From assembly GCA_964393715.1 (NCBI GenBank), contig CAYMVE010000004.1, forward strand, positions 1-35,539: 35,539 nucleotides of DNA, in the 5' to 3' direction. A program made the position numbers and the translations under genes. The stretch comes from an uncultured Bacteroidales bacterium. GTDB lineage: Bacteria > Bacteroidota > Bacteroidia > Bacteroidales > JALTDM01. Shown one piece after another: positions 2,532-34,119 of the stretch (within the stretch, counting starts at the first letter, position 1; each line of letters starts with the position of its first letter). The notes under the pieces were generated by a model, which had not been told where the DNA came from, searched no databases, and saw only the letters and a list, made by a program, of their open reading frames with translations.

Positions 2532-3047
2532 ATGAAGAATAGTACATTTTCGTCGAAAGTGATGCACTTCTTCCTGAGTTGGGGGCTACTTTTCCTTGTT
2601 TGGTTGGCGTTTACCTCCACTACTCAGTCGCAAGAAGTGTTGGTTGGCGCAGGGGTGAGTATGCTTATTGCTTTGTTTACATTAAGGTTTTTTGATTGTT
2701 GTACTTTTTCGTTTTTATCTCCGGTAAGGCTGTTCAATGTGGTGTGGTACATTGTAGTGTTTATTATCGAGATGATAAAAGCGAACCTTGATGTAGCACG
2801 CAGAGTAATTGCTCCTTCGTTGCCCATTAATCCGGGAATTGTAAAAATTCAAACCCGGCTGAAATCCGATTATGCCAAAATGGTTTTGGCAAATAGTATT
2901 ACGCTTACACCCGGTACTTTGTCGGTGGATATAGTGGATGATTACATTTACATTCACTGGATAGATGTGAAAAGTACCGATCCGGAACAAGCATTTAAAG
3001 ACATTGCGGAAACATTTGAAAAAATCTTAATAAAAATCTTTGACTAA
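2532..3047 (+). CDS. mnhE: Mrp-type Na+/H+ antiporter subunit E (MbsA/MbxA of an MBS-like complex)
   Basis: PGIV and LANSITLTPGTLSVD motifs, YIHWID; first gene of the operon. Confidence 0.92.
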   Translation: MKNSTFSSKVMHFFLSWGLLFLVWLAFTSTTQSQEVLVGAGVSMLIALFTLRFFDCCTFSFLSPVRLFNVVWYIVVFIIEMIKANLDVARRVIAPSLPINPGIVKIQTRLKSDYAKMVLANSITLTPGTLSVDIVDDYIYIHWIDVKSTDPEQAFKDIAETFEKILIKIFD

Positions 3048-3316
3048 TGGAAGCATTTAAAGAATTAGCCATTTACATAGCATTTGGTTTTATCATCCTG
3101 GGGATGATATTTGCCTTTATCCGGTTTGTGAAGGGTTCTACGGCAGCAGACAGAACGGTTGCAGTTGATACTTTTACGACCATCGGTGTTGCGGGATTGG
3201 TTTTGTTGGGCTATCTGTTCCAACGCTTTATTTACATCGATGTGGCATTAGTGTATGGGGTACTTGGTTTTATAGGAGTATTGGTAATCGCAAGATATTT
3301 GGAGGACGCATTATGA
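3047..3316 (+). CDS. mnhF: Mrp subunit F (MbsB/MbxB)
   Basis: 89 aa, 3 TM; RFVKGSTAADRTVAVD, YIDVALVY and ARYL motifs; TAATG overlap with the upstream gene. Confidence 0.92.
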   Translation: MEAFKELAIYIAFGFIILGMIFAFIRFVKGSTAADRTVAVDTFTTIGVAGLVLLGYLFQRFIYIDVALVYGVLGFIGVLVIARYLEDAL

Positions 3317-3672
3317 TTCAGATATTGGAATTTATCGGTTTGGTGTTGATTATTATAGGTGCAGTTTTCCTGTTTTTGGGTGCACTTGGCATTTACAGAA
3401 TGCCCGATGTGTATAACAGGTTACAAGCCGGAACCAAGGCAACCACTTTGGGGGGGATGTCTCTAATTATAGGTGTAGGTCTTATCCAACCCGATTGGTT
3501 TTTTAAAACCCTGATTTTGGTTGTTTTTATAGCGCTTTCAAATCCTATTAGTTCACATGCTTTGGCAAGAAGTGCCTATAAGTCTAAAATCAAACCGTTT
3601 TTGAAAGGCGACGAAAACGAAATGGATGCTTATAAAGAAGTGGTTGAAAATAATAAAACTAAGGAGGCATAA
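3313..3672 (+). CDS. mnhG: Mrp subunit G (MbsC/MbxC)
   Basis: GIYRMPDVYNRLQAGTKATTLG and NPISSHALARSAY motifs; ATGA overlap. Confidence 0.93.
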   Translation: MIQILEFIGLVLIIIGAVFLFLGALGIYRMPDVYNRLQAGTKATTLGGMSLIIGVGLIQPDWFFKTLILVVFIALSNPISSHALARSAYKSKIKPFLKGDENEMDAYKEVVENNKTKEA

Positions 3673-3674
3673 AA

Positions 3675-3962
3675 ATGAGTATTCTACTGGTTAGTATCAT
3701 AATAATGGCCATTTTGCTTTTGGGGGCGGCTATTTATGCCGTTATCCAAAAGGATTTGCTTTATGCGGTGATTGCAACATCTATTATCAGTTTGATTTTA
3801 TCCATTATGTTCTATTTGTTGCAAGCTCCGGATGTGGCGCTTACCGAAGCGGCTATCGGTGTGGCTCTTACTACTATTATTTTTGTGATAACCATCCGGA
3901 ACACGGAAAGGTACGAAGATAAAAAGCATGTTAAGGTTGGAAATAAAATAATCAAAAAATGA
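3675..3962 (+). CDS. MbsD/MbhD-like subunit (DUF4040, MrpA C-terminal-like)
   Basis: 95 aa, 3 TM; LQAPDVALTEAAIG motif. Confidence 0.9.
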   Translation: MSILLVSIIIMAILLLGAAIYAVIQKDLLYAVIATSIISLILSIMFYLLQAPDVALTEAAIGVALTTIIFVITIRNTERYEDKKHVKVGNKIIKK

Positions 3963-4669
3963 AGAAGGTAATCGTTTTATTATTGCTTGCAGTTGTCGGG
4001 TATTATCTGGTAGATGTTTTTTCTCAAATATCATTTGGCGAAAACAGATATGAAGGTCAAAATGTAAGGGATTTCTACCTGGATAAATCTAAAAATGACT
4101 TGCAAGTTTCGAATAGTGTAACTGCCATTGTCGTAAACTTTAGAGGATTTGATACCTTGGGAGAAGTAACGGTTTTATTTTTGGCAGCTACGGCATTGGG
4201 AAGTATTTTGTACAGGCGTAGGGAGGATGCGCATGGTGGAGTGGTGCTTTTTAGTGCCAGTAGGATTGTAAGAGCCGGTTCGCATTTGTTGTTTGCTCCC
4301 ATATTGTTGCTGGGTGCTTATGTGTTTATACACGGCCATTTGTCACCTGGTGGAGGATTTCAAGGAGGTACCATTATAGCAACAGGATTTTTGCTGATGT
4401 TATTGGCTTATCATGATTACAAAGTTAGCCATGGTGTTTTGTCATGGGTAGAATCCTTGGCCGGTCTTACTTTTGTGTTTGCCGGTTTGGGCGGATTGAT
4501 TTTAGGCAAGACCTTTTTGGAAAATTTCCTGCCCGTTGGGACCATTAATTATTTGTTCAGCGGCGGTATTATTCCTATTATTTATATTGCTGTAGGGTTC
4601 AAAGTAGGGGCAGAATTGACGGGCGTACTTTATACTTTGTTGAATGAAAAAGAATATAAAAAACAATAA
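3959..4669 (+). CDS. mnhB: Mrp subunit B-like (MbsE; fused MbhE+MbhF equivalent)
   Basis: NSVTAIVVNFRGFDTLGEVTVLF and HGHLSPGGGFQGG motifs. Confidence 0.92.
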   Translation: MKKVIVLLLLAVVGYYLVDVFSQISFGENRYEGQNVRDFYLDKSKNDLQVSNSVTAIVVNFRGFDTLGEVTVLFLAATALGSILYRRREDAHGGVVLFSASRIVRAGSHLLFAPILLLGAYVFIHGHLSPGGGFQGGTIIATGFLLMLLAYHDYKVSHGVLSWVESLAGLTFVFAGLGGLILGKTFLENFLPVGTINYLFSGGIIPIIYIAVGFKVGAELTGVLYTLLNEKEYKKQ

Positions 4670-4672
4670 GTT

Positions 4673-5050
4673 ATGAATCTGGGAAATAATCTTGATATTT
4701 TGACCATTACCTTTTACGGGTCGGCAATACTGCTTATTCTTATAGGTTTGTATGCCGCACTGGTAAAAAGGTCTTTGATTAAAATCGTAATCGGATTGTC
4801 AATAATTGATTCCGGTGTGCATTTGTTGTTGGTATCCATAGGATATTTGCAAGGTGGTACGGCACCGATTTTTTCGCCGGCAGTTATTGACAAAAATCCG
4901 GTAATGGTTGACCCTGTACCGCAAGCACTTGTTCTTACGGCCATTGTTATTGGTTTTGCCGTAACAGCCGTTGCATTGGCATTGGTAATTAGACTTTACA
5001 GACATCATAAAACTGTTAATATTGACGAAATAAAGAATTTAAAATGGTAG
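4673..5050 (+). CDS. mnhC: Mrp subunit C / NuoK-like (MbsG)
   Basis: VDPVPQALVLTAIVIG motif; 3 TM. Confidence 0.93.
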   Translation: MNLGNNLDILTITFYGSAILLILIGLYAALVKRSLIKIVIGLSIIDSGVHLLLVSIGYLQGGTAPIFSPAVIDKNPVMVDPVPQALVLTAIVIGFAVTAVALALVIRLYRHHKTVNIDEIKNLKW

Positions 5051-6540
5051 GAACACCTGTACAACTGATAGCGATTCCGTTATTGGCAGCGTTTTTGATG
5101 CCGCTGCTCGGAAAAGCATGGAAAGAGTTAGTAAGAATAACTCCCGGTGTAGTATTAGTGTATTTGTTGTATTTATCGGTAAATTTGTTGAGCTACACCA
5201 TTGACAACGGAAGGATTGTGGAAATGATAGCCGGGTGGAGTCCACCTTGGGGAATCAATCTGGTATTTTCTCCTTTTAGCGGCTTTCTCGCCACACTGAT
5301 GCTTTTTATGGGGCTTATTGTGTGGATCTATTCTTACAGGTTCAAAAAAATTGAAGATTACGACGATTATGAACCGACTATCAAGTACTATTTGTTATTA
5401 ATGATGTTGATAACGGCATCCGTAGGAATAGTACTTACCGGTGATATCTTCAATTTGTTTGTATTCATAGAAATATTGGGTATTACCGCGTATGGCCTTA
5501 CAGCATTTTACCGAGGACGAGACGGTGCCGAAGCCGCTTTCAAGTATTTGTTTATCGGTTCGTTCTCTTCCGTATTGTTGTTGTTGGCCATTATGATTAT
5601 TTATTCCCAATTGGGCACCTTAAATATGGCTGATATTGCTCAGAAGGCCGGAGAATTGAAGCCGGTTTACAAAATATCGGCACTCGTATTATTTTTGGTT
5701 GCTTTGGGTATTGAGGCCGAAATGTTTCCCCTTAACGGATGGGCACCGGATGCTTATTCACAAGCTCCTGCACCGGTTGGTGCCGCTTTTGCCGGTGTTG
5801 TCGTAAAAGCCGGTCTTTACACAATTATCCGCCTGATATACACTTTGTTTGATGTGGGCGGTACTTACGAATACCTGATTGTCATGGGAATGGTGACAAT
5901 GGTCATTGCCGAATTTGCTGCTATCAGTCAAAACCGCCTGAAAAGAATGCTGGCTTATTCAAGTATCGGACAAATGGGACTGGTATTGGTAGCTTTCGGT
6001 ATTGGAAAAGAAGAAGGGGTATTTGCCGCTTTATTTCTGATGTTTAATCATGCTATCATAAAAGGGCTTTTGTTCCTCTCGGGAAGTTATTTGGTTTATC
6101 ATTCCAAAGATAAATATTTGTCGGAATTGAACGGTATCGGTAAGATTATGCCGCTTACCTCATTCTTGTTTGCGTTGGCCGCTTTTGCCATTGTAGGATT
6201 TCCGCCTTTTGCCGGATTTTGGAGTAAGTTGGCAGTATTAACTGCTGCGGCAGATTCGGGAATGCTGCTTATTGTTGGCTTAATTTTGTCGGTAAGTGTG
6301 ATTGAGGTGGTTTATTACCTGAGGGTAGTGAACCGAATTTATTTTGTAAAGAGGGAAACCGATGTGGAAATCCAAAAGCCGACACCTCAAGCAATGCTTT
6401 CTATGCTGGTACTTGGGGCAATTATTATTGCAGTAGGTTTTTATCCCGATGTTATTACGGGGATATTACACAAAGCCTCTGCTGCTTTATTGGATAAGAC
6501 AACTTATATAAATGAAGTATTAAGTCAAACCATAAATTAA
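5044..6540 (+). CDS. mnhD: Antiporter-like proton-translocating subunit, MrpD/NuoN-like (MbsH)
   Basis: GWSPPWGI, TGDIFNLFVFIE, WAPDAYSQAP, LKRMLAYSSIGQMG and GFPPFAGFWSK motifs. Confidence 0.9.
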   Translation: MVGTPVQLIAIPLLAAFLMPLLGKAWKELVRITPGVVLVYLLYLSVNLLSYTIDNGRIVEMIAGWSPPWGINLVFSPFSGFLATLMLFMGLIVWIYSYRFKKIEDYDDYEPTIKYYLLLMMLITASVGIVLTGDIFNLFVFIEILGITAYGLTAFYRGRDGAEAAFKYLFIGSFSSVLLLLAIMIIYSQLGTLNMADIAQKAGELKPVYKISALVLFLVALGIEAEMFPLNGWAPDAYSQAPAPVGAAFAGVVVKAGLYTIIRLIYTLFDVGGTYEYLIVMGMVTMVIAEFAAISQNRLKRMLAYSSIGQMGLVLVAFGIGKEEGVFAALFLMFNHAIIKGLLFLSGSYLVYHSKDKYLSELNGIGKIMPLTSFLFALAAFAIVGFPPFAGFWSKLAVLTAAADSGMLLIVGLILSVSVIEVVYYLRVVNRIYFVKRETDVEIQKPTPQAMLSMLVLGAIIIAVGFYPDVITGILHKASAALLDKTTYINEVLSQTIN

Positions 6541-6547
6541 AAAAGAT

Positions 6548-8398
6548 ATGAATATCATACACATAACCTTGGGAATATTGCTCGGCGGTGCGGTGCTTAC
6601 CTATTTTGCCCATAAGATTTCCGGTATTTTGAGAGATATTGTCTTTGCCGGTTCTCTTATTGTGGCAACTGTATTGTTTTTTATGCAAATAGCACCCGAT
6701 ACCGTAGCCAATTTTAGTTTGGGCGGTTGGCAACTCTTATTGAGTTTGTCCCATTTCGGATTGTTGTTTTCCTTTATCATATTGGGGCTGGGGGTGTTGG
6801 CAGGCATCTATGCCATTCCTTATATGAAAGATAAAGAAAATCTGGGGTTTTTTTACATGAATTTCTTACTCAGTATCTTCGGAATGCTGGGGATTGTGAT
6901 GGCACAAGATCTGGTTTCCTTTTTTATTTTTTGGGAAATAATGACTTGGTCATCTTACTTACTGGTAGTCTATAACGGTAATGATACCAACAAGATAGGT
7001 ATAAAATACATCGTGTTTAGTGCCATCGGGGCTTATTCGATGCTAACGGCTATCGTAATGATATATTCGCAACTACATAGCTTTAATTGGAGCATTTTGT
7101 TTACTCAATTTACAACTATGCCGGTTGCCTATCAAGTAACGGTAGCAGTACTTTTCACCATAGGATTTGGAGTAAAGGCGGCTATGATGCCTTTGCATGT
7201 ATGGGCACCGGATGCTTACAGTAATGCTCCCATGGCGTTTACTTCCGTGTTTTCCGGGGCACTCTCCAAAATGGGGGTGTACGGGTTGGTATTGGTTTTT
7301 GTAACCATGGTATCTTACTTGCCGGAAAATTTGCTGTTTAGAGAAATTATAGCATGGTTAGGAGCCATTACGGCTGTTATGGGTACCTTGTGGGCTATTT
7401 TCCAGGATGATGCGAAAAAGTTGTTGGCTTATTCTTCGGTGGCTCAGTTAGGGTATATCATTGCCGGTGTAGCTATTGGTACCGAATTGGCTATGATGGC
7501 GGCTTTGTTTTTAGCCGTAATGCACGGAATTTTCAAAGGTACTTTGTTTATGGCTATTGGTGCCGTAGAAAAGCAAGTAGGAACGACCGACCTGACTGTA
7601 CTAACCGGTCTTATCCGAAAAATGCCGCTTACTTTTATTGCTACATTATTGTCGATTATTGCATTAGCCGGCGTTCCGCCTCTTGCCGGTTTTGTTGGTA
7701 AGTGGATGTTGTACGAAGCCATGATTGCTAACGGAAATTATATTCTGGTTATTTTGATATTCTTTTCCAGTACGGCCGCATTTTTGTATTCTTACAAGAT
7801 TTTGTACGGTATCTTTTTAGGACAAGAAGAACCGGAATTTAAAGATGTGAAAGAAGCACCTGCCTTGATGGTAATTCCTATGTTGGTGTTGGCAGCTCTG
7901 CTTTTCTTCTTCGGTTCTTTCCCGGGATATCTTTTGAAATACATTGATAATGCTTTGGTTACCATGGGCTATCCGGTGAGTGAAGGCAAATGGTGGAAAA
8001 TGTCCACCTTGTTTAATGATTGGGGCAACAAAGTAAGCTTGGATTTGGTTTTATATGCTGTTATTACGGTTTTCATTACTCTGGTGGTAATATTGTTTTT
8101 CAGGTGGAAGAATACCCGTTATGTTTCTACAAAAGATATCAGTCTTTCCGGTGAAATGCCGAAAGAAGATGAGAATTACAGTTTCAAATTAGACTTTTTC
8201 AAGCCGTTTGAAAGAGCGGTTTCGCCCTTATTGAGATATAAAATTGAAACTTATTACAACGGATTGGCTTCGGGATTAGAAGCTTTCTTTGATTTTGTAA
8301 GAAGAATTTATAACGGGAATGCACAAATTTATGCCATTTATGTGATTACATTTTTGGTAATATTATTATTGGTTGCAAATCATATTTTTACTGTTTAA
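6548..8398 (+). CDS. Second antiporter-like subunit with C-terminal extension, NuoL/M/MrpA-like (MbsH')
   Basis: FFIFWE, KAAMMPLHVWAPDAY, KKLLAYSSVAQLGY and GVPPLAGFVGKW motifs. The long C-terminal amphipathic segment plus final TM resembles a lateral helix. Confidence 0.9.
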   Translation: MNIIHITLGILLGGAVLTYFAHKISGILRDIVFAGSLIVATVLFFMQIAPDTVANFSLGGWQLLLSLSHFGLLFSFIILGLGVLAGIYAIPYMKDKENLGFFYMNFLLSIFGMLGIVMAQDLVSFFIFWEIMTWSSYLLVVYNGNDTNKIGIKYIVFSAIGAYSMLTAIVMIYSQLHSFNWSILFTQFTTMPVAYQVTVAVLFTIGFGVKAAMMPLHVWAPDAYSNAPMAFTSVFSGALSKMGVYGLVLVFVTMVSYLPENLLFREIIAWLGAITAVMGTLWAIFQDDAKKLLAYSSVAQLGYIIAGVAIGTELAMMAALFLAVMHGIFKGTLFMAIGAVEKQVGTTDLTVLTGLIRKMPLTFIATLLSIIALAGVPPLAGFVGKWMLYEAMIANGNYILVILIFFSSTAAFLYSYKILYGIFLGQEEPEFKDVKEAPALMVIPMLVLAALLFFFGSFPGYLLKYIDNALVTMGYPVSEGKWWKMSTLFNDWGNKVSLDLVLYAVITVFITLVVILFFRWKNTRYVSTKDISLSGEMPKEDENYSFKLDFFKPFERAVSPLLRYKIETYYNGLASGLEAFFDFVRRIYNGNAQIYAIYVITFLVILLLVANHIFTV

Positions 8399-8414: not shown

Positions 8415-9320
8415 ATGGACATACTAATAAAAATCTTAGGAGCGGTTGCCACAATATTTGTAGCATTTTTGGTTGGAATGCTGTATATGGGGCTTAGTAG
8501 GAAGATCACCGCAAGGGTACAAAATCGAATAGGTCCGCCTGTTTGGCAGAACTATATTGATGCCTTGAAACTCGTATCAAAAACCACTGCGGTACATCAT
8601 GGTATCATGCAACATTTGGCACCGGCCTTTTTGATGGTATCATCGATTGTTACTTTGATGTTCGTACCGGTTTTGAGGGATCACAACTGGTTTCCGAATT
8701 TGAGTTTTCACGGTGACCTGATATTTCTGCTTTATATTATGGTATTCGGTCCGTTGGGTATGGCTTTGGGAGCCGGACAAACCGGCAACCCAAATTCTGC
8801 TATCGGTATTACTCGTGGATTGAGTCAGCTTACCGGTTTTGAAATCCCCTGGGTAATGGCTTTGGTAGCTATTATGATTCAATATGATACTACTTCGGTA
8901 GCCGATGTAATGAAAGTACAGCAGGAACACGGTTGGTTGATGTTCCAAAATCCGTTTGCTTTCATTGCGGCCGTGTTGGCTATGTTAGGAATGTTTCGCT
9001 ATTCTCCGTTTGATATTGTCGGAGCACCTGCTGAATTGGCATCTGGTCCGGTATCCGAGTTTGGAGGTAAGTATTTGGGGCTTATGATGTCGTCCAAATC
9101 CATTTTTGCCTTTGCCAAATTGACTTTGTATGTTGATTTGTTTATGGGCGGTGCTTCCAATTTGATAGAACTGTTGGTAAAAACTTTTGCCTTATACCTT
9201 ATCCCCATGCTGTATGGCATGGTTAGTCCCAGATACAGAACGGAGCAAGCCATTCGTTATTTCTGGGGATGGCCTTTGTTTTTCGGGCTTTTGGCAATTT
9301 TGTATTCAGTAATTTTTTAA
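8415..9320 (+). CDS. nuoH: NuoH-like membrane anchor subunit (MbsM)
   Basis: RKITARVQNRIGPP, PFDIVGAPAELASGPVSEFGG and PRYRTEQ motifs. Confidence 0.92.
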   Translation: MDILIKILGAVATIFVAFLVGMLYMGLSRKITARVQNRIGPPVWQNYIDALKLVSKTTAVHHGIMQHLAPAFLMVSSIVTLMFVPVLRDHNWFPNLSFHGDLIFLLYIMVFGPLGMALGAGQTGNPNSAIGITRGLSQLTGFEIPWVMALVAIMIQYDTTSVADVMKVQQEHGWLMFQNPFAFIAAVLAMLGMFRYSPFDIVGAPAELASGPVSEFGGKYLGLMMSSKSIFAFAKLTLYVDLFMGGASNLIELLVKTFALYLIPMLYGMVSPRYRTEQAIRYFWGWPLFFGLLAILYSVIF

Positions 9321-9332
9321 ATATAGTTAGCA

Positions 9333-9884
9333 ATGATAAACGATAAAAATAGCCAAAAAATAGTTGATATAATCCAAAACTTTGCCCGTAAGCATTCTTT
9401 GTTTGTATTGGCTTACGGAACAGGTTGCGGGGCGATTGAAATACCTCCGACCATGACATCAAGGTACGATGCCGAGAGGTTTGGTATTAGAGGAGCCGCT
9501 ACACCTCGACAAGCCGATGTGCTGCTTATTACCGGATATTTGACCACCAAAACTCTGAAAAGAGTAATAAGAGTCTATGAACAAATGCAGGATCCCAAGT
9601 ATGTTATAGGGTTCGGTTCCTGTACCATAAACGGAGGAATGTATTGGGATTCTTATAACACCATAAAAGTGCTGGACAAATATTTGCCCGTTGATGTATA
9701 TATAAACGGCTGTATGCCACGACCTGAAGCCGTTATAGAAGGGTTTATCAAGTTACAAAAACTTATTGCGGAAGGAAAAGCCAACGGCGCAAAGAAATAT
9801 AAAGAAAATTTGGAATGGTATCGGGCTAATCAGAAAAAAGTATTAGGGCCTACTGTTCCGCACATTCAAGAATATAACTGGTAA
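9333..9884 (+). CDS. nuoB: NuoB-like Fe-S small subunit (MbsJ)
   Basis: TGCGAIE, RYDAERFG, PRQADVL, GSCTINGG and VDVYINGCMPRPE motifs; only three Cys (32, 97, 127). Confidence 0.92.
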   Translation: MINDKNSQKIVDIIQNFARKHSLFVLAYGTGCGAIEIPPTMTSRYDAERFGIRGAATPRQADVLLITGYLTTKTLKRVIRVYEQMQDPKYVIGFGSCTINGGMYWDSYNTIKVLDKYLPVDVYINGCMPRPEAVIEGFIKLQKLIAEGKANGAKKYKENLEWYRANQKKVLGPTVPHIQEYNW

Positions 9885-9896
9885 ACTTGCAAAGTC

Positions 9897-10472
9897 ATGA
9901 TGGAAGAAAAAAAACAATCAATCATAGAAAGATTGCAAAAAGCATTTCCCGAAATAGAGGAAACGAAGGTCGATTATCCTTATAATAGGGTGGACCTGCG
10001 AATTGCCAAAAATAAAATTCCGGCAATCTTGTTTTATCTAAAAGACGAAATGAGATTTATCCACCTTTCTCATATTACTTGTATAGACTGGATAGAAGAC
10101 GAAAAATTTGAATTGATTTTTATCGTTTGGTCGCCGGAGGAAAAAATAAAAGTTTTCGTAAGAACTTTCCTTGACAGGAATAATCCTGTTATGGAAAATA
10201 TTGACATGATATGGCGGCAAGCCAATACTTATGAAAGAGAGTTGAGGGAAATGTTCGGAATTCAATTTGAAGGATTGGTAGCCCCCAAAGAATTTATTTT
10301 GGAAGATTGGGACGATATACCACCTATGAGACGGGATTTTGATACAGAAGCTTATGCTAAAAAACGATTCTTTGAACGACCGGGCCGTGAAGATGCTCGT
10401 GATGTAAGGAAAACTATTGCAGAAAGAACCGGAGAAACCATACCTGAATTTGCAAAGAAATATTCAAGATAA
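9897..10472 (+). CDS. nuoC: NuoC-like subunit (MbsK)
   Basis: ANTYERELREMFGIQFEG and EDWDDIPPMRRDF motifs. Confidence 0.92.
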   Translation: MMEEKKQSIIERLQKAFPEIEETKVDYPYNRVDLRIAKNKIPAILFYLKDEMRFIHLSHITCIDWIEDEKFELIFIVWSPEEKIKVFVRTFLDRNNPVMENIDMIWRQANTYERELREMFGIQFEGLVAPKEFILEDWDDIPPMRRDFDTEAYAKKRFFERPGREDARDVRKTIAERTGETIPEFAKKYSR

Positions 10473-10483
10473 TTTTTGGAACA

Positions 10484-11602
10484 ATGGCAAGAGAAAAAGT
10501 AACAACATTATATTTAGGACCTCAGCACCCCGGTATTACGGGTAACATGATGGTCAGACTGAAGCTCAAAGGAGATACCATAGTCGGAGCAAGAACCGAA
10601 GTCGGTTATCTTCATAGAGGTTTTGAAAAATTACAGGAAAAAAGAAATTGGCTGCAATCTTTTACCATATTGTGCCGTTTCTGTGTTCCCGAACCCGATC
10701 CGGTAGAAGAAGCCTATGCTTTGGCCGTGGAAATGCTAGAAGGAAGAGAAGTGCCTGAAAGGGCAAAATATATCAGAGTGCTGGTGCTGGAAATGGCCCG
10801 TATAGCGTCTTATTTATTGTGGTACGGTGGACAATCGGGGTCTGCCGGACTTTACACAATCGGGCAATGGAGTGTAGGAGACCGGAACTATATACTCGAT
10901 TTGTTTGAAGATTTGACTGGTGGTCGTGTGTATCACATGTTTATCTGGCCGGGCGGCGTAAGACGAGATTTGCCCAGAGGTTTTAAAGATAAGGCCATGA
11001 AAGTAATGGATTATTTGGAAAAGCGTCTGGAAGATTACGATACCCTGCTTTTTGAAAATGCCATTTTCCAAAAAAGAGCACAAGGCGTGGGCGTGATTGA
11101 CAAAAACAAAGCCGTGGAATGGGGAGTAGTAGGGCCGCCGCTTAGAGGATGTGGCATCAAAAGCGATATCCGGATAGATGACCCGTACGAAGTGTATGAT
11201 GAGTTGTACGAAAAAGGTGTATTTGAAGTGCCTGCTTATGAAGGTGGTGATGTTTGGGCAAGGGCTTTGGTTAGAAGATTTGAAATAAGACAGTCCATAA
11301 ATATCATCAGGTATGTTTTGGATAATATGCCGGAAGGAGAATTTTATAACAAGATACCGAATCCACACAAATGGAAATTACCTAAAGGCGATGCTTACTC
11401 CAGAGTGGAAGCTACTCGTGGAGAAATCGGATTCTTTGTAGCAAGCGACGGAGGTATTTATCCGAGAAGGACACACATGAGAGGTGCTGCTTATGTACAC
11501 GGAGTAACACTGCTCGAAAATCTCCTTATAGGAGAAAATGTGGCAGATGTTTCTTTTATTATGAATAGTTTGGGAACTTGTCCACCTGAAATAGAAAGAT
11601 AA
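10484..11602 (+). CDS. nuoD: NuoD/hydrogenase-large-subunit homologue of the MbsL/MbxL type (no NiFe site)
   Basis: GPQHP and GYLHRGFEK motifs. The L1 position reads CRFCVPEPD and the C-terminus reads SLGTCPPEIER, leaving one Cys per hydrogenase CxxC motif. Confidence 0.9.
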   Translation: MAREKVTTLYLGPQHPGITGNMMVRLKLKGDTIVGARTEVGYLHRGFEKLQEKRNWLQSFTILCRFCVPEPDPVEEAYALAVEMLEGREVPERAKYIRVLVLEMARIASYLLWYGGQSGSAGLYTIGQWSVGDRNYILDLFEDLTGGRVYHMFIWPGGVRRDLPRGFKDKAMKVMDYLEKRLEDYDTLLFENAIFQKRAQGVGVIDKNKAVEWGVVGPPLRGCGIKSDIRIDDPYEVYDELYEKGVFEVPAYEGGDVWARALVRRFEIRQSINIIRYVLDNMPEGEFYNKIPNPHKWKLPKGDAYSRVEATRGEIGFFVASDGGIYPRRTHMRGAAYVHGVTLLENLLIGENVADVSFIMNSLGTCPPEIER

Positions 11603-11620: not shown

Positions 11621-13417
11621 ATGAGTTTTTTTAATTTGAAAGGCACATTAAAACCGCTAACTTCGTTAAAGCAATTTGCCAAGAAACCACATACCATAGA
11701 GTTTCCATTGGAAGCTCCGGAAACAAGCGAAAGATATAGAGGGTTACACTTTAATAATCTGGAATACTGTATTGGGTGCGGCAACTGTTCTACTATCTGT
11801 CAAAATGCGGCAATAGACATGATTCCCGTAGAAGGAATCGAACCTAAAAAAGGAGATTCCGGACTTAGGCCGCGAGTGGACAACGGAAGATGTTGTTGGT
11901 GTGCTTTGTGCGTGGAAGTGTGTCCGACCGGAAGTCTTTCTTTGACAAAGGATTATATATTTGTTTCGGATAATCCGGATGACTTTTTGTGGACGCCTGG
12001 TGTGGACAATCCTGACGGAATCAATTTGATTTCGTTTACTTCTTCGCCGGATACTTCGCTCAATGAATATGAAAGAGTTCCCATGCCGGAACTGGACGGG
12101 AAAGAAAGAGTCAAGTCGTTTGCCGAAGTGGTATTGGGATATCAGGAAGAAGAAGCCCGCAAAGAAGCACAAAGATGTATCAGCTGCGGATTGTGTACCG
12201 AAGCATGTCCCGACCACATGCATATTCCAGAGTATATCAATGCCATAGCAAGTGGTAACGACGAAGATGCCATCCGTATTATTTACGATAACAACCCGTT
12301 GCCGGAAATGTGCGGTAAGGTATGTACCCGCAGATGTGAAGAAGTGTGTGCTATTGCCAAACGAGGCGAACCGCTTGCTATTAGATGGCTCAAAAGATAT
12401 GCTACGGAAAGAGCGGAAAATGCCGATTTGATCAAAGAAATTGTGAATCCTGAAATATTGCCGCCCAATGGCTACAAAGTAGGTATTATCGGAGCCGGTC
12501 CGTCAGGTCTTACGGCTGGTTATTATCTGGCACTCAGAGGCTTTGATGTGACTATTTACGAAGCCCATGATAAGCCGGGCGGTATGACCATGTATGGGAT
12601 ACCTAAATACAGGTTGCCTCTGGAAAGCTTGATGAAGCAAGTGGAATACATGGAAAAAATCGGTGTTAAGATTCATTACAACACCAAAGTAGGTAAGGAT
12701 ATTAGTTTTGAAGAAATTTATGAAAAGTTTGATGCCGTATTTGTGGGAGTAGGTTTTGCCAAGCCATGGACCCTGGGTATAGAAGGAGAAGATTTGGAAG
12801 GCTCTTCGCAAGCGGTATATTTCCTCGAAAGAATCAATAGCGGAGAGAGAATAGATGTTGGTTACAGAGTAGTGGTAATAGGAGGAGGAAATGTGGCAAT
12901 AGACGCTGCCAGAGTATCGAGAAGGTTAGGGGCTGAAGTAGTAATGCTATACAGAAGAAGAATTGAAGACATGCCGGCCGACTGGGAAGAAATAGAAGGA
13001 GCGGAAGCCGAAGGTGTTCAAATTATCCCCCAAACCATACCGATTAAGATTCACGGAGAAAACGGTAAGGTAAAAGCCGTAGAATATTTGAAAGCCGAAA
13101 TGGTGCCAGATCCGAAAGGAGGAAGACCCAGACCTCAGCCGATAGAAGGTAGTAACACCATAATAGAATGTAGCTCGGTATTTGCGGCTATCGGTCAGCA
13201 AGGTGATTACTCTTTCATAGAAGAAAGCAAGTTCAAAGATGCCATTAAGATAGAAAGAGGCAGATTTGTTGTGAATGAAATGCAACAAACAACCCTTGAC
13301 AAAGTGTTTGCCGGTGGTGATGCTGTAAACAGAACGGCTGATGCTATCAGTGCTATTGCCGATGGTTATCGTGCCGTAAAAGGTATCGAAAAATTCTTGC
13401 TGGGAAAGAATAAATAA
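11621..13417 (+). CDS. NuoI-like 2x[4Fe-4S] subunit (MbsN) fused to a GltD/SudA/NfnB-type FAD- and NAD(P)H-binding oxidoreductase
   Basis: N-terminal SERYRGLH, CIGCGNCSTIC and CCWCALCVEVCP; then EAQRCISCGLCTEACP, CGKVCTRRCEEVC, GAGPSG (FAD), GGGNVAID...YRRR (NADPH-type) and VFAGGD. Confidence 0.9.
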   Translation: MSFFNLKGTLKPLTSLKQFAKKPHTIEFPLEAPETSERYRGLHFNNLEYCIGCGNCSTICQNAAIDMIPVEGIEPKKGDSGLRPRVDNGRCCWCALCVEVCPTGSLSLTKDYIFVSDNPDDFLWTPGVDNPDGINLISFTSSPDTSLNEYERVPMPELDGKERVKSFAEVVLGYQEEEARKEAQRCISCGLCTEACPDHMHIPEYINAIASGNDEDAIRIIYDNNPLPEMCGKVCTRRCEEVCAIAKRGEPLAIRWLKRYATERAENADLIKEIVNPEILPPNGYKVGIIGAGPSGLTAGYYLALRGFDVTIYEAHDKPGGMTMYGIPKYRLPLESLMKQVEYMEKIGVKIHYNTKVGKDISFEEIYEKFDAVFVGVGFAKPWTLGIEGEDLEGSSQAVYFLERINSGERIDVGYRVVVIGGGNVAIDAARVSRRLGAEVVMLYRRRIEDMPADWEEIEGAEAEGVQIIPQTIPIKIHGENGKVKAVEYLKAEMVPDPKGGRPRPQPIEGSNTIIECSSVFAAIGQQGDYSFIEESKFKDAIKIERGRFVVNEMQQTTLDKVFAGGDAVNRTADAISAIADGYRAVKGIEKFLLGKNK

Positions 13418-32277: not shown

Positions 32278-34119
32278 ATGGACGAAAAACACAAACCCAC
32301 TAGTTTAGAAGACGTTGTGATACGTTTTGCGGGTGATTCTGGAGACGGTATGCAATTGATAGGTACTTTGTTCTCCGATGCATCTGCACATTACGGAAAT
32401 GATATTGCAACATTTCCGGATTATCCGGCGGAAATCAGAGCACCCCAAGGAACCGTTGGCGGTGTATCAGGTTTTACCGTGCATTTCGGACATACGGAAG
32501 TAAACACTCCGGGAGATTATGCCGATTTATTGGTAGCCATGAATCCGGCATCACTCAAGGCAAGCGTAAAATACCTGAAGCCGGGTGCGACGATTATTGT
32601 AGATATTGATGCTTTTACGGAAAAAAATATTAAAAAAGCAGGTTACCAAACCGATGATCCGTTTAAAGAAGACGGGTTGGAAGATTACAATATAATTCCT
32701 GTAAAAATCACTTCGCTTACCAAAGAAGCGTTGAAAGATTTGAATTTGGACAATAAGTCGGCGGTAAGAAGCAAAAATATGTTTGTGCTCGGAATGGTTG
32801 ATTTTATGTTCAGCCGTCCGTTGGATTACACCATACAATTTTTTGAAAAGAAATTTGCAGGTAAGCCGACTATTATCGAAGCCAATAAAAGAGCCTTGAA
32901 GGCAGGCTTTAATTATGCGGAAAATTCTCATGCTATCTTCTCGTTTAAAGTGGCTCCGGCAAAAATAGAACCCGGACGCTACAGGAACATCAACGGAAAT
33001 GTAGCTACGGCATGGGGATTTATAGTAGCCGCAGAAAAAGCCGGATTGGAACTCTTTTGCGGATCGTATCCTATAACACCGGCATCCGAAATATTGCAAG
33101 AACTTTCCAAAAGAAGAGATTTGGGCGTTAAGACATTCCAAGCGGAAGATGAAATTGCCGGTATTACAACGGCCATAGGAGCCAGTTTTGCAGGCGATTT
33201 GGCTATTACCACAACATCCGGGCCGGGGTTGGCTCTGAAAACCGAAGCCGCCGGTTTAGCCGTAATTACCGAACTTCCTCTGGTTATTGTGGATGTGCAA
33301 AGAGGCGGCCCATCGACAGGATTGCCAACCAAAACGGAACAAGCGGATTTATTCCAAGCATTATTCGGTAGAAACGGAGAATCTCCGATGCCGGTAATTG
33401 CCGCTTTCGGACCTTCCGACGCATTTTATACGGCCATAGAGGCTTCCAGAATAGCCTTGGAGCACATGACTCCTATTGTCATGCTTACCGACAGTTATAC
33501 GGCTAACGGTTCACAACCGTTCAGAATACCCGATTTGAATGAAATACCGGAAATCAAACCTCCTATTGTAACCGAACCTCCTTATCAACCATACGAAAGA
33601 ATAGACAAGGAAAAAATGATAAGAGGTTGGGCAAAAGTAGGTGTGCCGGGATTGCAACACAGATTGGGAAGCCTTGAAAAAATGGCAGTAACCGGTACCG
33701 TATCTTATGTGCCGGAAAACCATGAAAGAATGGTGAAAGAAAGACAACAAAAAGTGGATGCCATTGCCAACGATATTCCGCTACAAAAAGTAGAAGGAAA
33801 TCCCGATTCGGAACTGCTAATAATCGGTTGGGGAAGCACATACGGCCATATCAGGAGAGCCGTTAATCAGCTGAAACGCGAAGGAATAGAAGTGGCCTAT
33901 ACGCAATTCAAGTATATCAACCCGCTTCCGAAAAATACCGAAGAAGTTATTAAGAAATACAAAAAAGCCGTTGTATTCGAACTTAATATGGGACAATTTG
34001 CCAACTATTTGAGAATGAAGTTCCCCGGATTTGACCCCGTACAATATAATAAAGTACAAGGATTGCCTTTTACGGTTCAGGAAATTGTAGATCACATTAA
34101 ATCATTGTTAAAAAAATAA
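32278..34119 (+). CDS. korA: 2-oxoacid:ferredoxin oxidoreductase alpha subunit (gamma-alpha fusion)
   Basis: GDSGDGMQ, YPITP, QAEDE, TTTSGPG, QRGGPSTGLPTKTEQ and ELNMGQ motifs; substrate specificity not determinable. Confidence 0.92.
   Translation: MDEKHKPTSLEDVVIRFAGDSGDGMQLIGTLFSDASAHYGNDIATFPDYPAEIRAPQGTVGGVSGFTVHFGHTEVNTPGDYADLLVAMNPASLKASVKYLKPGATIIVDIDAFTEKNIKKAGYQTDDPFKEDGLEDYNIIPVKITSLTKEALKDLNLDNKSAVRSKNMFVLGMVDFMFSRPLDYTIQFFEKKFAGKPTIIEANKRALKAGFNYAENSHAIFSFKVAPAKIEPGRYRNINGNVATAWGFIVAAEKAGLELFCGSYPITPASEILQELSKRRDLGVKTFQAEDEIAGITTAIGASFAGDLAITTTSGPGLALKTEAAGLAVITELPLVIVDVQRGGPSTGLPTKTEQADLFQALFGRNGESPMPVIAAFGPSDAFYTAIEASRIALEHMTPIVMLTDSYTANGSQPFRIPDLNEIPEIKPPIVTEPPYQPYERIDKEKMIRGWAKVGVPGLQHRLGSLEKMAVTGTVSYVPENHERMVKERQQKVDAIANDIPLQKVEGNPDSELLIIGWGSTYGHIRRAVNQLKREGIEVAYTQFKYINPLPKNTEEVIKKYKKAVVFELNMGQFANYLRMKFPGFDPVQYNKVQGLPFTVQEIVDHIKSLLKK

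Follow-up and report, generated by a model that had tools for sequence, protein, structure and literature searches.

An MbsJ-like subunit with glycine at the place of a non-ligand cysteine, encoded in an MBS-type operon of an uncultured Bacteroidales bacterium

The operon and its genome

The stretch of DNA analysed here (hereafter, the window; 35,539 nucleotides, positions 1 to 35,539 of the forward strand of contig CAYMVE010000004.1, assembly GCA_964393715.1) derives from an uncultured Bacteroidales bacterium. Between positions 2532 and 13417 it contains 13 genes on the same strand, with short gaps or overlaps between them, and their order and families, deduced from the open reading frames (ORFs) and from Pfam matches, are those of mbsABCDEGHH'MJKLN:

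2532-3047, + strand: MbsA, MrpE-like (Pfam MNHE)
3047-3316, + strand: MbsB, MrpF-like (Pfam MrpF_PhaF)
3313-3672, + strand: MbsC, MrpG-like (Pfam PhaG_MnhG_YufB)
3675-3962, + strand: MbsD, MbhD-like (Pfam MbhD)
3959-4669, + strand: MbsE, MbhE/MnhB-like (Pfam MbhE+MnhB)
4673-5050, + strand: MbsG, NuoK-like (Pfam Oxidored_q2)
5044-6540, + strand: MbsH, MrpD/NuoN-like antiporter subunit (Proton_antipo_M, E 8.8e-64)
6548-8398, + strand: MbsH', MrpD/NuoN-like antiporter subunit (Proton_antipo_M, E 4.5e-60)
8415..9320, + strand: MbsM, NuoH-like membrane anchor (PF00146, E 9.8e-54)
9333..9884, + strand: MbsJ-like (NuoB-family) subunit, ORF of 183 aa, predicted carrier of the proximal [4Fe-4S] cluster (PF01058, E 1.4e-24)
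9897..10472, + strand: MbsK, NuoC-like (PF00329, E 5.5e-26)
10484..11602, + strand: MbsL, NuoD / [NiFe] large-subunit-like (top PDB match 6u8y_L, E 8e-107)
11621..13417, + strand: MbsN, 598 aa, NuoI-like part (two [4Fe-4S], roughly residues 1-130) joined to a GltD/SudA-like Fer4_20 plus FAD/NAD(P)-binding domain

The last gene product is composite, with Pfam matches to Fer4_9/Fer4_7 at residues 46-104, Fer4_20 at 163-267 and Pyr_redox_2 at 285-582. NuoI models match residues 9-125, and the NCBIfam model PRK13984 covers the whole length with 644 bits, under its cut-off of 946 bits. Being fused to Fer4_20 and Pyr_redox_2, this MbsN does not have the free form found in the ferredoxin-fed archaeal MBS. 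Of the 55 related loci having an N homologue (from the best 80 of 598, see below), 47 carry the fusion, including loci of both the glycine and the cysteine types described in the following sections, and MbsN is unfused in Thermococci (L047, L064), three Clostridia and three other loci of the same set. Fusions of the MbsN-GltD type are already in print for Thermotoga and proteobacteria, in whose 'mbx-like' operons NuoI is replaced by a gltD-related flavoprotein (Degli Esposti 2015, PMC4758237); likewise, a putative Mrp-Mbx complex has been reported in a Riftia symbiont (PMC11636981).

The genome containing the window is 2.2 Mb in size and 99.5% complete. The MbsJ gene is its sole PF01058 match and, since this is the only NuoB-family gene of the genome, a conventional Nuo complex is absent. 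The genome encodes a single [FeFe] hydrogenase and has two genes of the RnfD/NqrB family, along with four matches to POR_N, one of which lies in the window itself (33055-33687); no match to PF00374, the [NiFe] large subunit, was found in it.

The cysteines of MbsJ and the cluster of the archaeal enzyme

Among all PDB chains, the top match of the window's MbsJ is MbsJ from P. furiosus (6u8y_J; E 3.1e-69, 235.8 bits), followed by plant and cyanobacterial NdhK (E 3.2e-40, ca. 140 bits); comparison with MbhJ (6cfw_J) gives an E value of 1.2e-32. Identity with the MbsJ proteins of Thermococci is 55–59%, and residues 12-173 align without gaps with residues 8-169 of the 6u8y_J chain, which pairs G29 with C25, C32 with C28, C97 with C93 and C127 with C123. 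The translated ORF contains only these three cysteines, the first of them in the motif L-A-Y-G29-T-G-C32-G-A-I-E. The translation and the PDB search thus bear out the original prediction of an MbsJ-like protein with three cysteines and a glycine at position 29. The corresponding codons are:

9417..9419, + strand: codon GGA for G29, aligned with P. furiosus MbsJ C25 (non-ligand cysteine)
9426..9428, + strand: codon TGC for C32, equivalent of P. furiosus ligand C28
9621..9623, + strand: codon TGT for C97, equivalent of P. furiosus ligand C93
9711..9713, + strand: codon TGT for C127, equivalent of P. furiosus ligand C123

Three sequence patterns around the first ligand distinguish the related families, and all three were as the original prediction had described them: the tandem CC of NuoB, seen as GLACC in 86 of 150 representatives; the CxxC of hydrogenase small subunits, seen as SCNGCD in the hydrogenase-type sequences from Thermococci; and the CTGCG of archaeal and Thermotogota MbsJ, seen in P. 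furiosus, Thermococci and Thermotogae (L032, L063). The window's MbsJ lacks the tandem CC, as C32 is followed by G33, and also lacks the CTGCG-type cysteine (C25 in P. furiosus), having G29 instead. In the alignment, its loop ahead of the first ligand is net three residues shorter than in the hydrogenase type (AY----GTGCGAIE in the window versus HVNTGSCNGCD-IE).

The equivalent site has been studied in P. furiosus MBS, whose proximal cluster, as isolated, is a [4Fe-4S] with only three cysteine ligands, C28, C93 and C123; C25 lies beyond binding distance of the cluster, and the loop of MbsJ is three residues shorter than that of MBH, so that C25 cannot take part in ligation (PMC7684303). With dimethyltrisulfide (DMTS) as the substrate, MBS carrying C25A shows wild-type activity, as does MBS carrying C85A/C385A in MbsL, two residues located at ca. 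12 Å from the proximal cluster (PMC7684303). Treatment with ferricyanide converts the cluster into a [3Fe-4S], with a loss of about 98% of the activity that is reversed by Fe2+, and polysulfide was proposed to bind at the unique iron of the cluster and to undergo reductive cleavage there (PMC7684303).

Because it keeps exactly the three ligands, and because the cysteine it lacks is the published non-ligand, the window's MbsJ is, by its sequence, a natural "C25G", the counterpart of the C25A experiment already done. The original prediction had reasoned that loss of the first cysteine opens an iron site and provides a natural test of the proposed mechanism. This reasoning assumed that the first cysteine of CTGCG ligates the cluster, and it fails with the published data on P. 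furiosus, in which C25 is already a non-ligand and can be replaced by alanine with wild-type activity (PMC7684303); the natural variant corroborates the published mechanism and does not constitute a new test of it. The prediction had also considered that GTGCG could simply be the normal state of characterised MbsJ proteins: taken literally this is not so, because the P. furiosus protein has CTGCG, although functionally the ligation by three cysteines is indeed the characterised state. We thus treat the cysteine at the C25 position, which according to the published work does not ligate the cluster and is dispensable for activity, as a variable and not as a defining trait of MbsJ. By the same comparisons, the window's gene is best described as encoding MbsJ, the iron-sulfur subunit of a complex-I-like membrane enzyme of the MBS type, and as an ordinary member of a known family, within which it falls on an old, bacterial branch.

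Distribution and phylogeny of the glycine at position 29

An alignment of homologues, which the original prediction had proposed as a check on the spread of GTGCG, indicated that this motif is common. Homologues (2780 proteins at E ≤ 1e-20) were clustered at 90%, and among the best 120 clusters listed, with identities of 80–99%, all 120 contain GTGCG and 118 contain exactly three cysteines, the fourth cysteine of the other two being in an N-terminal extension or a C-terminal tail. Likewise, glycine was found in all seven species-level Bacteroidales loci (L002-L008, 79–87% identity). This conservation across relatives refutes a sequencing error at codon 29, which the original prediction had named as a possible flaw. 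Additionally, both the reading frame and the operon are intact, and the codon at 9417-9419 was checked on a Logan contig of 803 nt from run X1, corresponding to 9129-9931, which has 0 differences with the window, run X1 being possibly the source sample and, if so, not independent; the coverage of run X2 does not include this codon. We can therefore practically discard that G29 results from an error of sequencing or assembly, or that the gene is decaying.

For a wider comparison, species-representative genomes were scanned and, from 598 relatives, the best 80 were kept, ranked by how closely they match a query alignment that itself included G-type sequences; L002-L066 are MbsJ-type and L067-L081 are NdhK/NuoB. 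Leaving out L037 and L052, which are short matches, 63 loci remain and make, with the window, 64 MbsJ-type rows, in which position 29 is glycine in 35 and cysteine in 29, a proportion that is biased toward the relatives of the query and in which one of the two search patterns admitted only G, C or V. Residues C32, G33, C97 and C127 are kept in all 64 rows from these best 80; C32 is also invariant in both alignments A1 and A2, and C97 and C127 in A2. In a representative library of 1.84 billion proteins the MbsJ-type group is small, with scores dropping from ca. 197 to ca. 150 bits at the onset of NuoB/NdhK, and the nine full-length MbsJ-type representatives inspected have cysteine (five), glycine (three) or valine (one) at position 29. 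The MbsJ-type representative P0125 reads V-T-G-C-G and has three cysteines, and P0137 and P0138 belong to a more distant group with F-x-x-C-G, three cysteines and a GCPPKPE motif.

Both types are found in cultured hosts: Celeribacter ethanolicus NH195 (L066) has the G type, and Clostridium tepidiprofundi DSM 19306 (L028) and Caloramator sp. (L035) have the C type. Within the order of the window's bacterium, MbsJ-type matches of at least 60% identity occur in 14 of 61 genomes, including six of six from its family. Two genomes of this order (G034 and G059) contain two MbsJ-type genes each, with 76–87% and 60% identity to the query, and in metagenome-assembled genomes of different Thiodiazotropha species one locus (L015) is G-type and another (L052) is C-type. 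Together, these two cases suggest that there are two paralogous enzyme classes able to coexist.

A phylogenetic tree of MbsJ alone (87 rows), rooted on the hydrogenase-type small subunits of Thermococci (SCNGCD), separates the MbsJ family (SH-aLRT 97) and NuoB/NdhK (98) as sister groups, with the window inside the 64-row MbsJ clade (97). The 35 G rows form a clade (98), which is nested (90) with two CTGCG clades, one comprising Thermotogae, Clostridia and Brevinematales and the other Spirochaetes and Gammaproteobacteria; Thermococci, a Synergistota row and a clade with YFCTGCGIIE fall outside these three. In a tree of concatenated MbsJ and MbsL (59 rows, trait columns masked, quick IQ-TREE search), the 31 G rows again form a single clade (SH-aLRT 99), which comprises Bacteroidales, Spirochaetes, Aminicenantes, Thermoanaerobaculia, Rhodospirillales, Cloacimonadaceae, Gammaproteobacteria, Burkholderiales and Celeribacter ethanolicus. 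Both are quick searches with SH-aLRT support only, with a weak outgroup join in the tree of MbsJ alone (68) and flagged long branches, and as such they support that one old, derived change from cysteine to glycine would define a large bacterial clade. They also support that this glycine probably arose independently of that of NuoB in the same column, since the G clade branches from within the MbsJ family and not as a sister group of NuoB. Separately, the MbsJ of L055, a contig labelled Bathyarchaeota, falls inside the gammaproteobacterial CTGCG clade, which reflects either a mis-binned contig or gene transfer.

Position 29 is the sole column of MbsJ that separates the G type from the C type at a threshold of 90%/10%. 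Comparison of columns and counts of cysteines did not reveal a compensating ligand within MbsJ: no extra conserved cysteine was found in the G-type proteins, and no other cysteine column exceeds 4 of the 35 rows. The suggestion in the original prediction that another residue supplies the ligand thus finds no candidate inside this subunit. Sites with three cysteines often carry [3Fe-4S] clusters, and a native cluster of this kind, instead of a [4Fe-4S], would be an alternative for the G type. The conversion of the P. furiosus cluster with ferricyanide agrees with this alternative, but that cluster has the same ligands, is a [4Fe-4S] as isolated and loses nearly all its activity as a [3Fe-4S] (PMC7684303). 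Besides, nothing in MbsJ other than position 29 marks the clade, and we consider a native [3Fe-4S] very unlikely.

The partner subunit MbsL, predicted function and relation to known systems

MbsL from the window retains two vestigial Ni-Fe cysteines, C67 (10682-10684) and C366 (11579-11581), which align with P. furiosus C85 and C385, and has E70 and E369 at the remaining two Ni-Fe positions. It contains an extra cysteine, C64 (10673-10675), that together with C67 forms a C-x-x-C (C64-R-F-C67, 10673-10684). A reading of C64 as a Ni-Fe ligand, with three of the four cysteines kept, was ruled out from an alignment with the hydrogenase large subunits of Thermococci (L1 motif), which places C64 on the Glu that precedes the Arg in ER[IM]CGIC, C67 on the first Ni-Fe cysteine and E70 on the second. 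Among the loci from the best 80 of 598, C64 occurs in 26 of 31 of the G type versus 7 of 26 of the C type. It is absent from five G-type loci, including the closest relative of the window on both trees (L002, with P there), and C67 is lost instead in five, which have CAYE (four) or VAYE (one) and, hence, Ala at the equivalent of C85. The other vestigial position varies as well: in many G-type loci (L011, L014-L018, L023, L025, L030, L036, L040, L042, L060 and L066) the C-terminus of MbsL reads SLHTYPPEIER, with Tyr at the equivalent of C385. Since Tyr or Ala substitutions occur across many G-type loci, the vestigial Ni-Fe cysteines of MbsL would be dispensable within this clade.

The distribution of C64 raises the possibility that the fourth iron is ligated from outside the three MbsJ cysteines, by MbsL C64 or by a non-cysteine residue, in which case the cluster would only relay electrons and catalysis would take place elsewhere, for example at the C64-x-x-C67 dithiol. 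The enrichment of C64 in the G type, its pairing with the conserved C67 and the existence of six clade-specific positions in MbsL (M22, V40, M152, R328, N352 and E371, at the 90%/10% threshold) are in line with this scenario. Nevertheless, Cys and His are both absent from these six residues, conservation of the pair is contradicted by the five losses of C67, and the five G-type loci devoid of C64 include the relative closest to the window; moreover, the P. furiosus residues C85 and C385 are some 12 Å away and their mutants are active (PMC7684303). The association of G29 in MbsJ with C64 in MbsL corresponds to one event on one branch and is not a statistical correlation: C64 appeared on the same branch as the loss of the MbsJ cysteine, and position 29 changes only once on the tree of both proteins. 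Ligation from outside MbsJ is, in our opinion, quite unlikely, and C64 is better regarded as a putative labile accessory thiol than as a cluster ligand, although its presence in the branch that lost the MbsJ cysteine could reflect an altered chemistry of the chamber.

Taking all this into account, the locus probably encodes an MBS-type, Mrp-linked enzyme fed by NAD(P)H, in which C32, C97 and C127 would hold a cubane [4Fe-4S] and leave its fourth iron free of cysteine ligation, as in P. furiosus. For the G type, the predictions of cluster type, fourth-iron state and substrate are based on homology to Thermococci MbsJ (55–59% identity), and on the same grounds the unique iron would act on sulfane sulfur in the way proposed for P. 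furiosus. As judged from the domain content, electrons from NAD(P)H would probably enter through the GltD-like domain fused to MbsN and reach the cluster of MbsJ via the two in MbsN, and turnover at the J/L/M chamber would drive ion translocation by the Mrp-like arm. According to midpoint potentials, NAD(P)H provides, in comparison with ferredoxin, a small driving force for the reduction of polysulfide. For this reason, the physiological acceptor or the direction of the reaction may differ from those of P. furiosus MBS.

Another alternative is that the enzyme is not a sulfane reductase and uses another acceptor, such as a quinone or an organic disulfide, or operates in reverse, with the ion gradient reducing NAD(P)+. 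In this respect, NuoB/NdhK likewise have glycine at position 29 (GLACC, GTACC), the genome has no second NuoB-family gene, the hosts of G-type loci include sulfur-oxidising Gammaproteobacteria and a cultured isolate of Rhodobacterales (L015, L066), and the fusion with a GltD-like domain is indicative of NAD(P)(H). Against this, the tandem CC is absent, with G33 in its place; MbsL lacks equivalents of H38 and Y87 from the quinone site of T. thermophilus Nqo4, having T19 and V68 in the alignment with 2fug_4; NuoB is not the sister group of the G clade, which belongs within the MbsJ family; and the three-cysteine site, tied to polysulfide reduction in P. furiosus, is strictly conserved. Altogether, a different acceptor or a reversed reaction seems unlikely. 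We give a similarly low probability to the GTGCG clade, which extends from Bacteroidales to sulfur-oxidising Gammaproteobacteria, being a separate functional class, linked to NAD(P)H by the fused GltD-like domain, in which an accessory thiol close to the catalytic chamber has moved from C25 of MbsJ to C64 of MbsL, as a C-x-x-C with C67. If true, this class could show an altered handling of the substrate, or it could run in reverse, the ion gradient driving the reduction of NAD(P)+ from sulfide or polysulfide.

Under the preferred reading of an MBS-type enzyme with a three-cysteine [4Fe-4S], the GTGCG clade adds no new mechanism and fits the published one. The claim that a bare iron of a [4Fe-4S] catalyses sulfane reduction in MBS is based on one archaeal enzyme, and a clade devoid of the only nearby MbsJ cysteine, with its three ligands invariant, provides independent comparative support that C25 is irrelevant and that ligation by three cysteines is selected. 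The enzyme family and its proposed mechanism were known, and the novelty resides in the large GTGCG clade, apparently undescribed before: we found no mention of a G variant of MbsJ in the literature on MBS, MbsJ and Mbx (PMC7684303, PMC8165549, PMC4758237 and PMC11636981), whose supplements could show it (e.g. Supplementary Fig. 6c of PMC7684303, in which MbsJ sequences are aligned). The cultured hosts of both types, Celeribacter, Clostridium and Caloramator, offer study systems for the bacterial, NAD(P)H-linked form.

Among known systems, group-4 [NiFe]-hydrogenase small subunits such as MbhJ share with the window's MbsJ the family and the position of the proximal cluster, but they have a CxxC (SCNGCD) in which both cysteines ligate, in a loop net three residues longer (PMC7684303), and the four Ni-Fe cysteines are all present in the large subunit that partners them, versus two of four in the window's MbsL. 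NuoB/NdhK, the subunit of cluster N2, has in common with it PF01058, the three conserved cysteine columns and the glycine at position 29 (G-x-x-C-C); however, its fourth ligand is the second cysteine of the tandem CC, at the place of G33 in the window, and it forms a separate clade (SH-aLRT 98) with a score of ca. 140 bits, versus 236 for MbsJ. The 'mbx-like' operons resemble that of the window in that homologues of NuoH/B/C/D come after the Mrp-type genes and the terminal subunit is GltD-like, and in the vestigial Ni-Fe cysteines of the NuoD homologue (PMC4758237), although the sampled Thermotogae loci (L032, L063) have CTGCG and the window belongs to the GTGCG clade. Finally, P. furiosus MBS, from a hyperthermophilic archaeon and not from a Bacteroidales bacterium, differs by its cysteine at the non-ligand position C25, where the window has glycine, by the lack of the extra MbsL C64, and by a free MbsN that receives electrons from ferredoxin (PMC7684303), instead of one fused to GltD; both systems share the three cluster ligands, the short loop, the absence of a tandem CC, the operon order and the two vestigial cysteines of MbsL.
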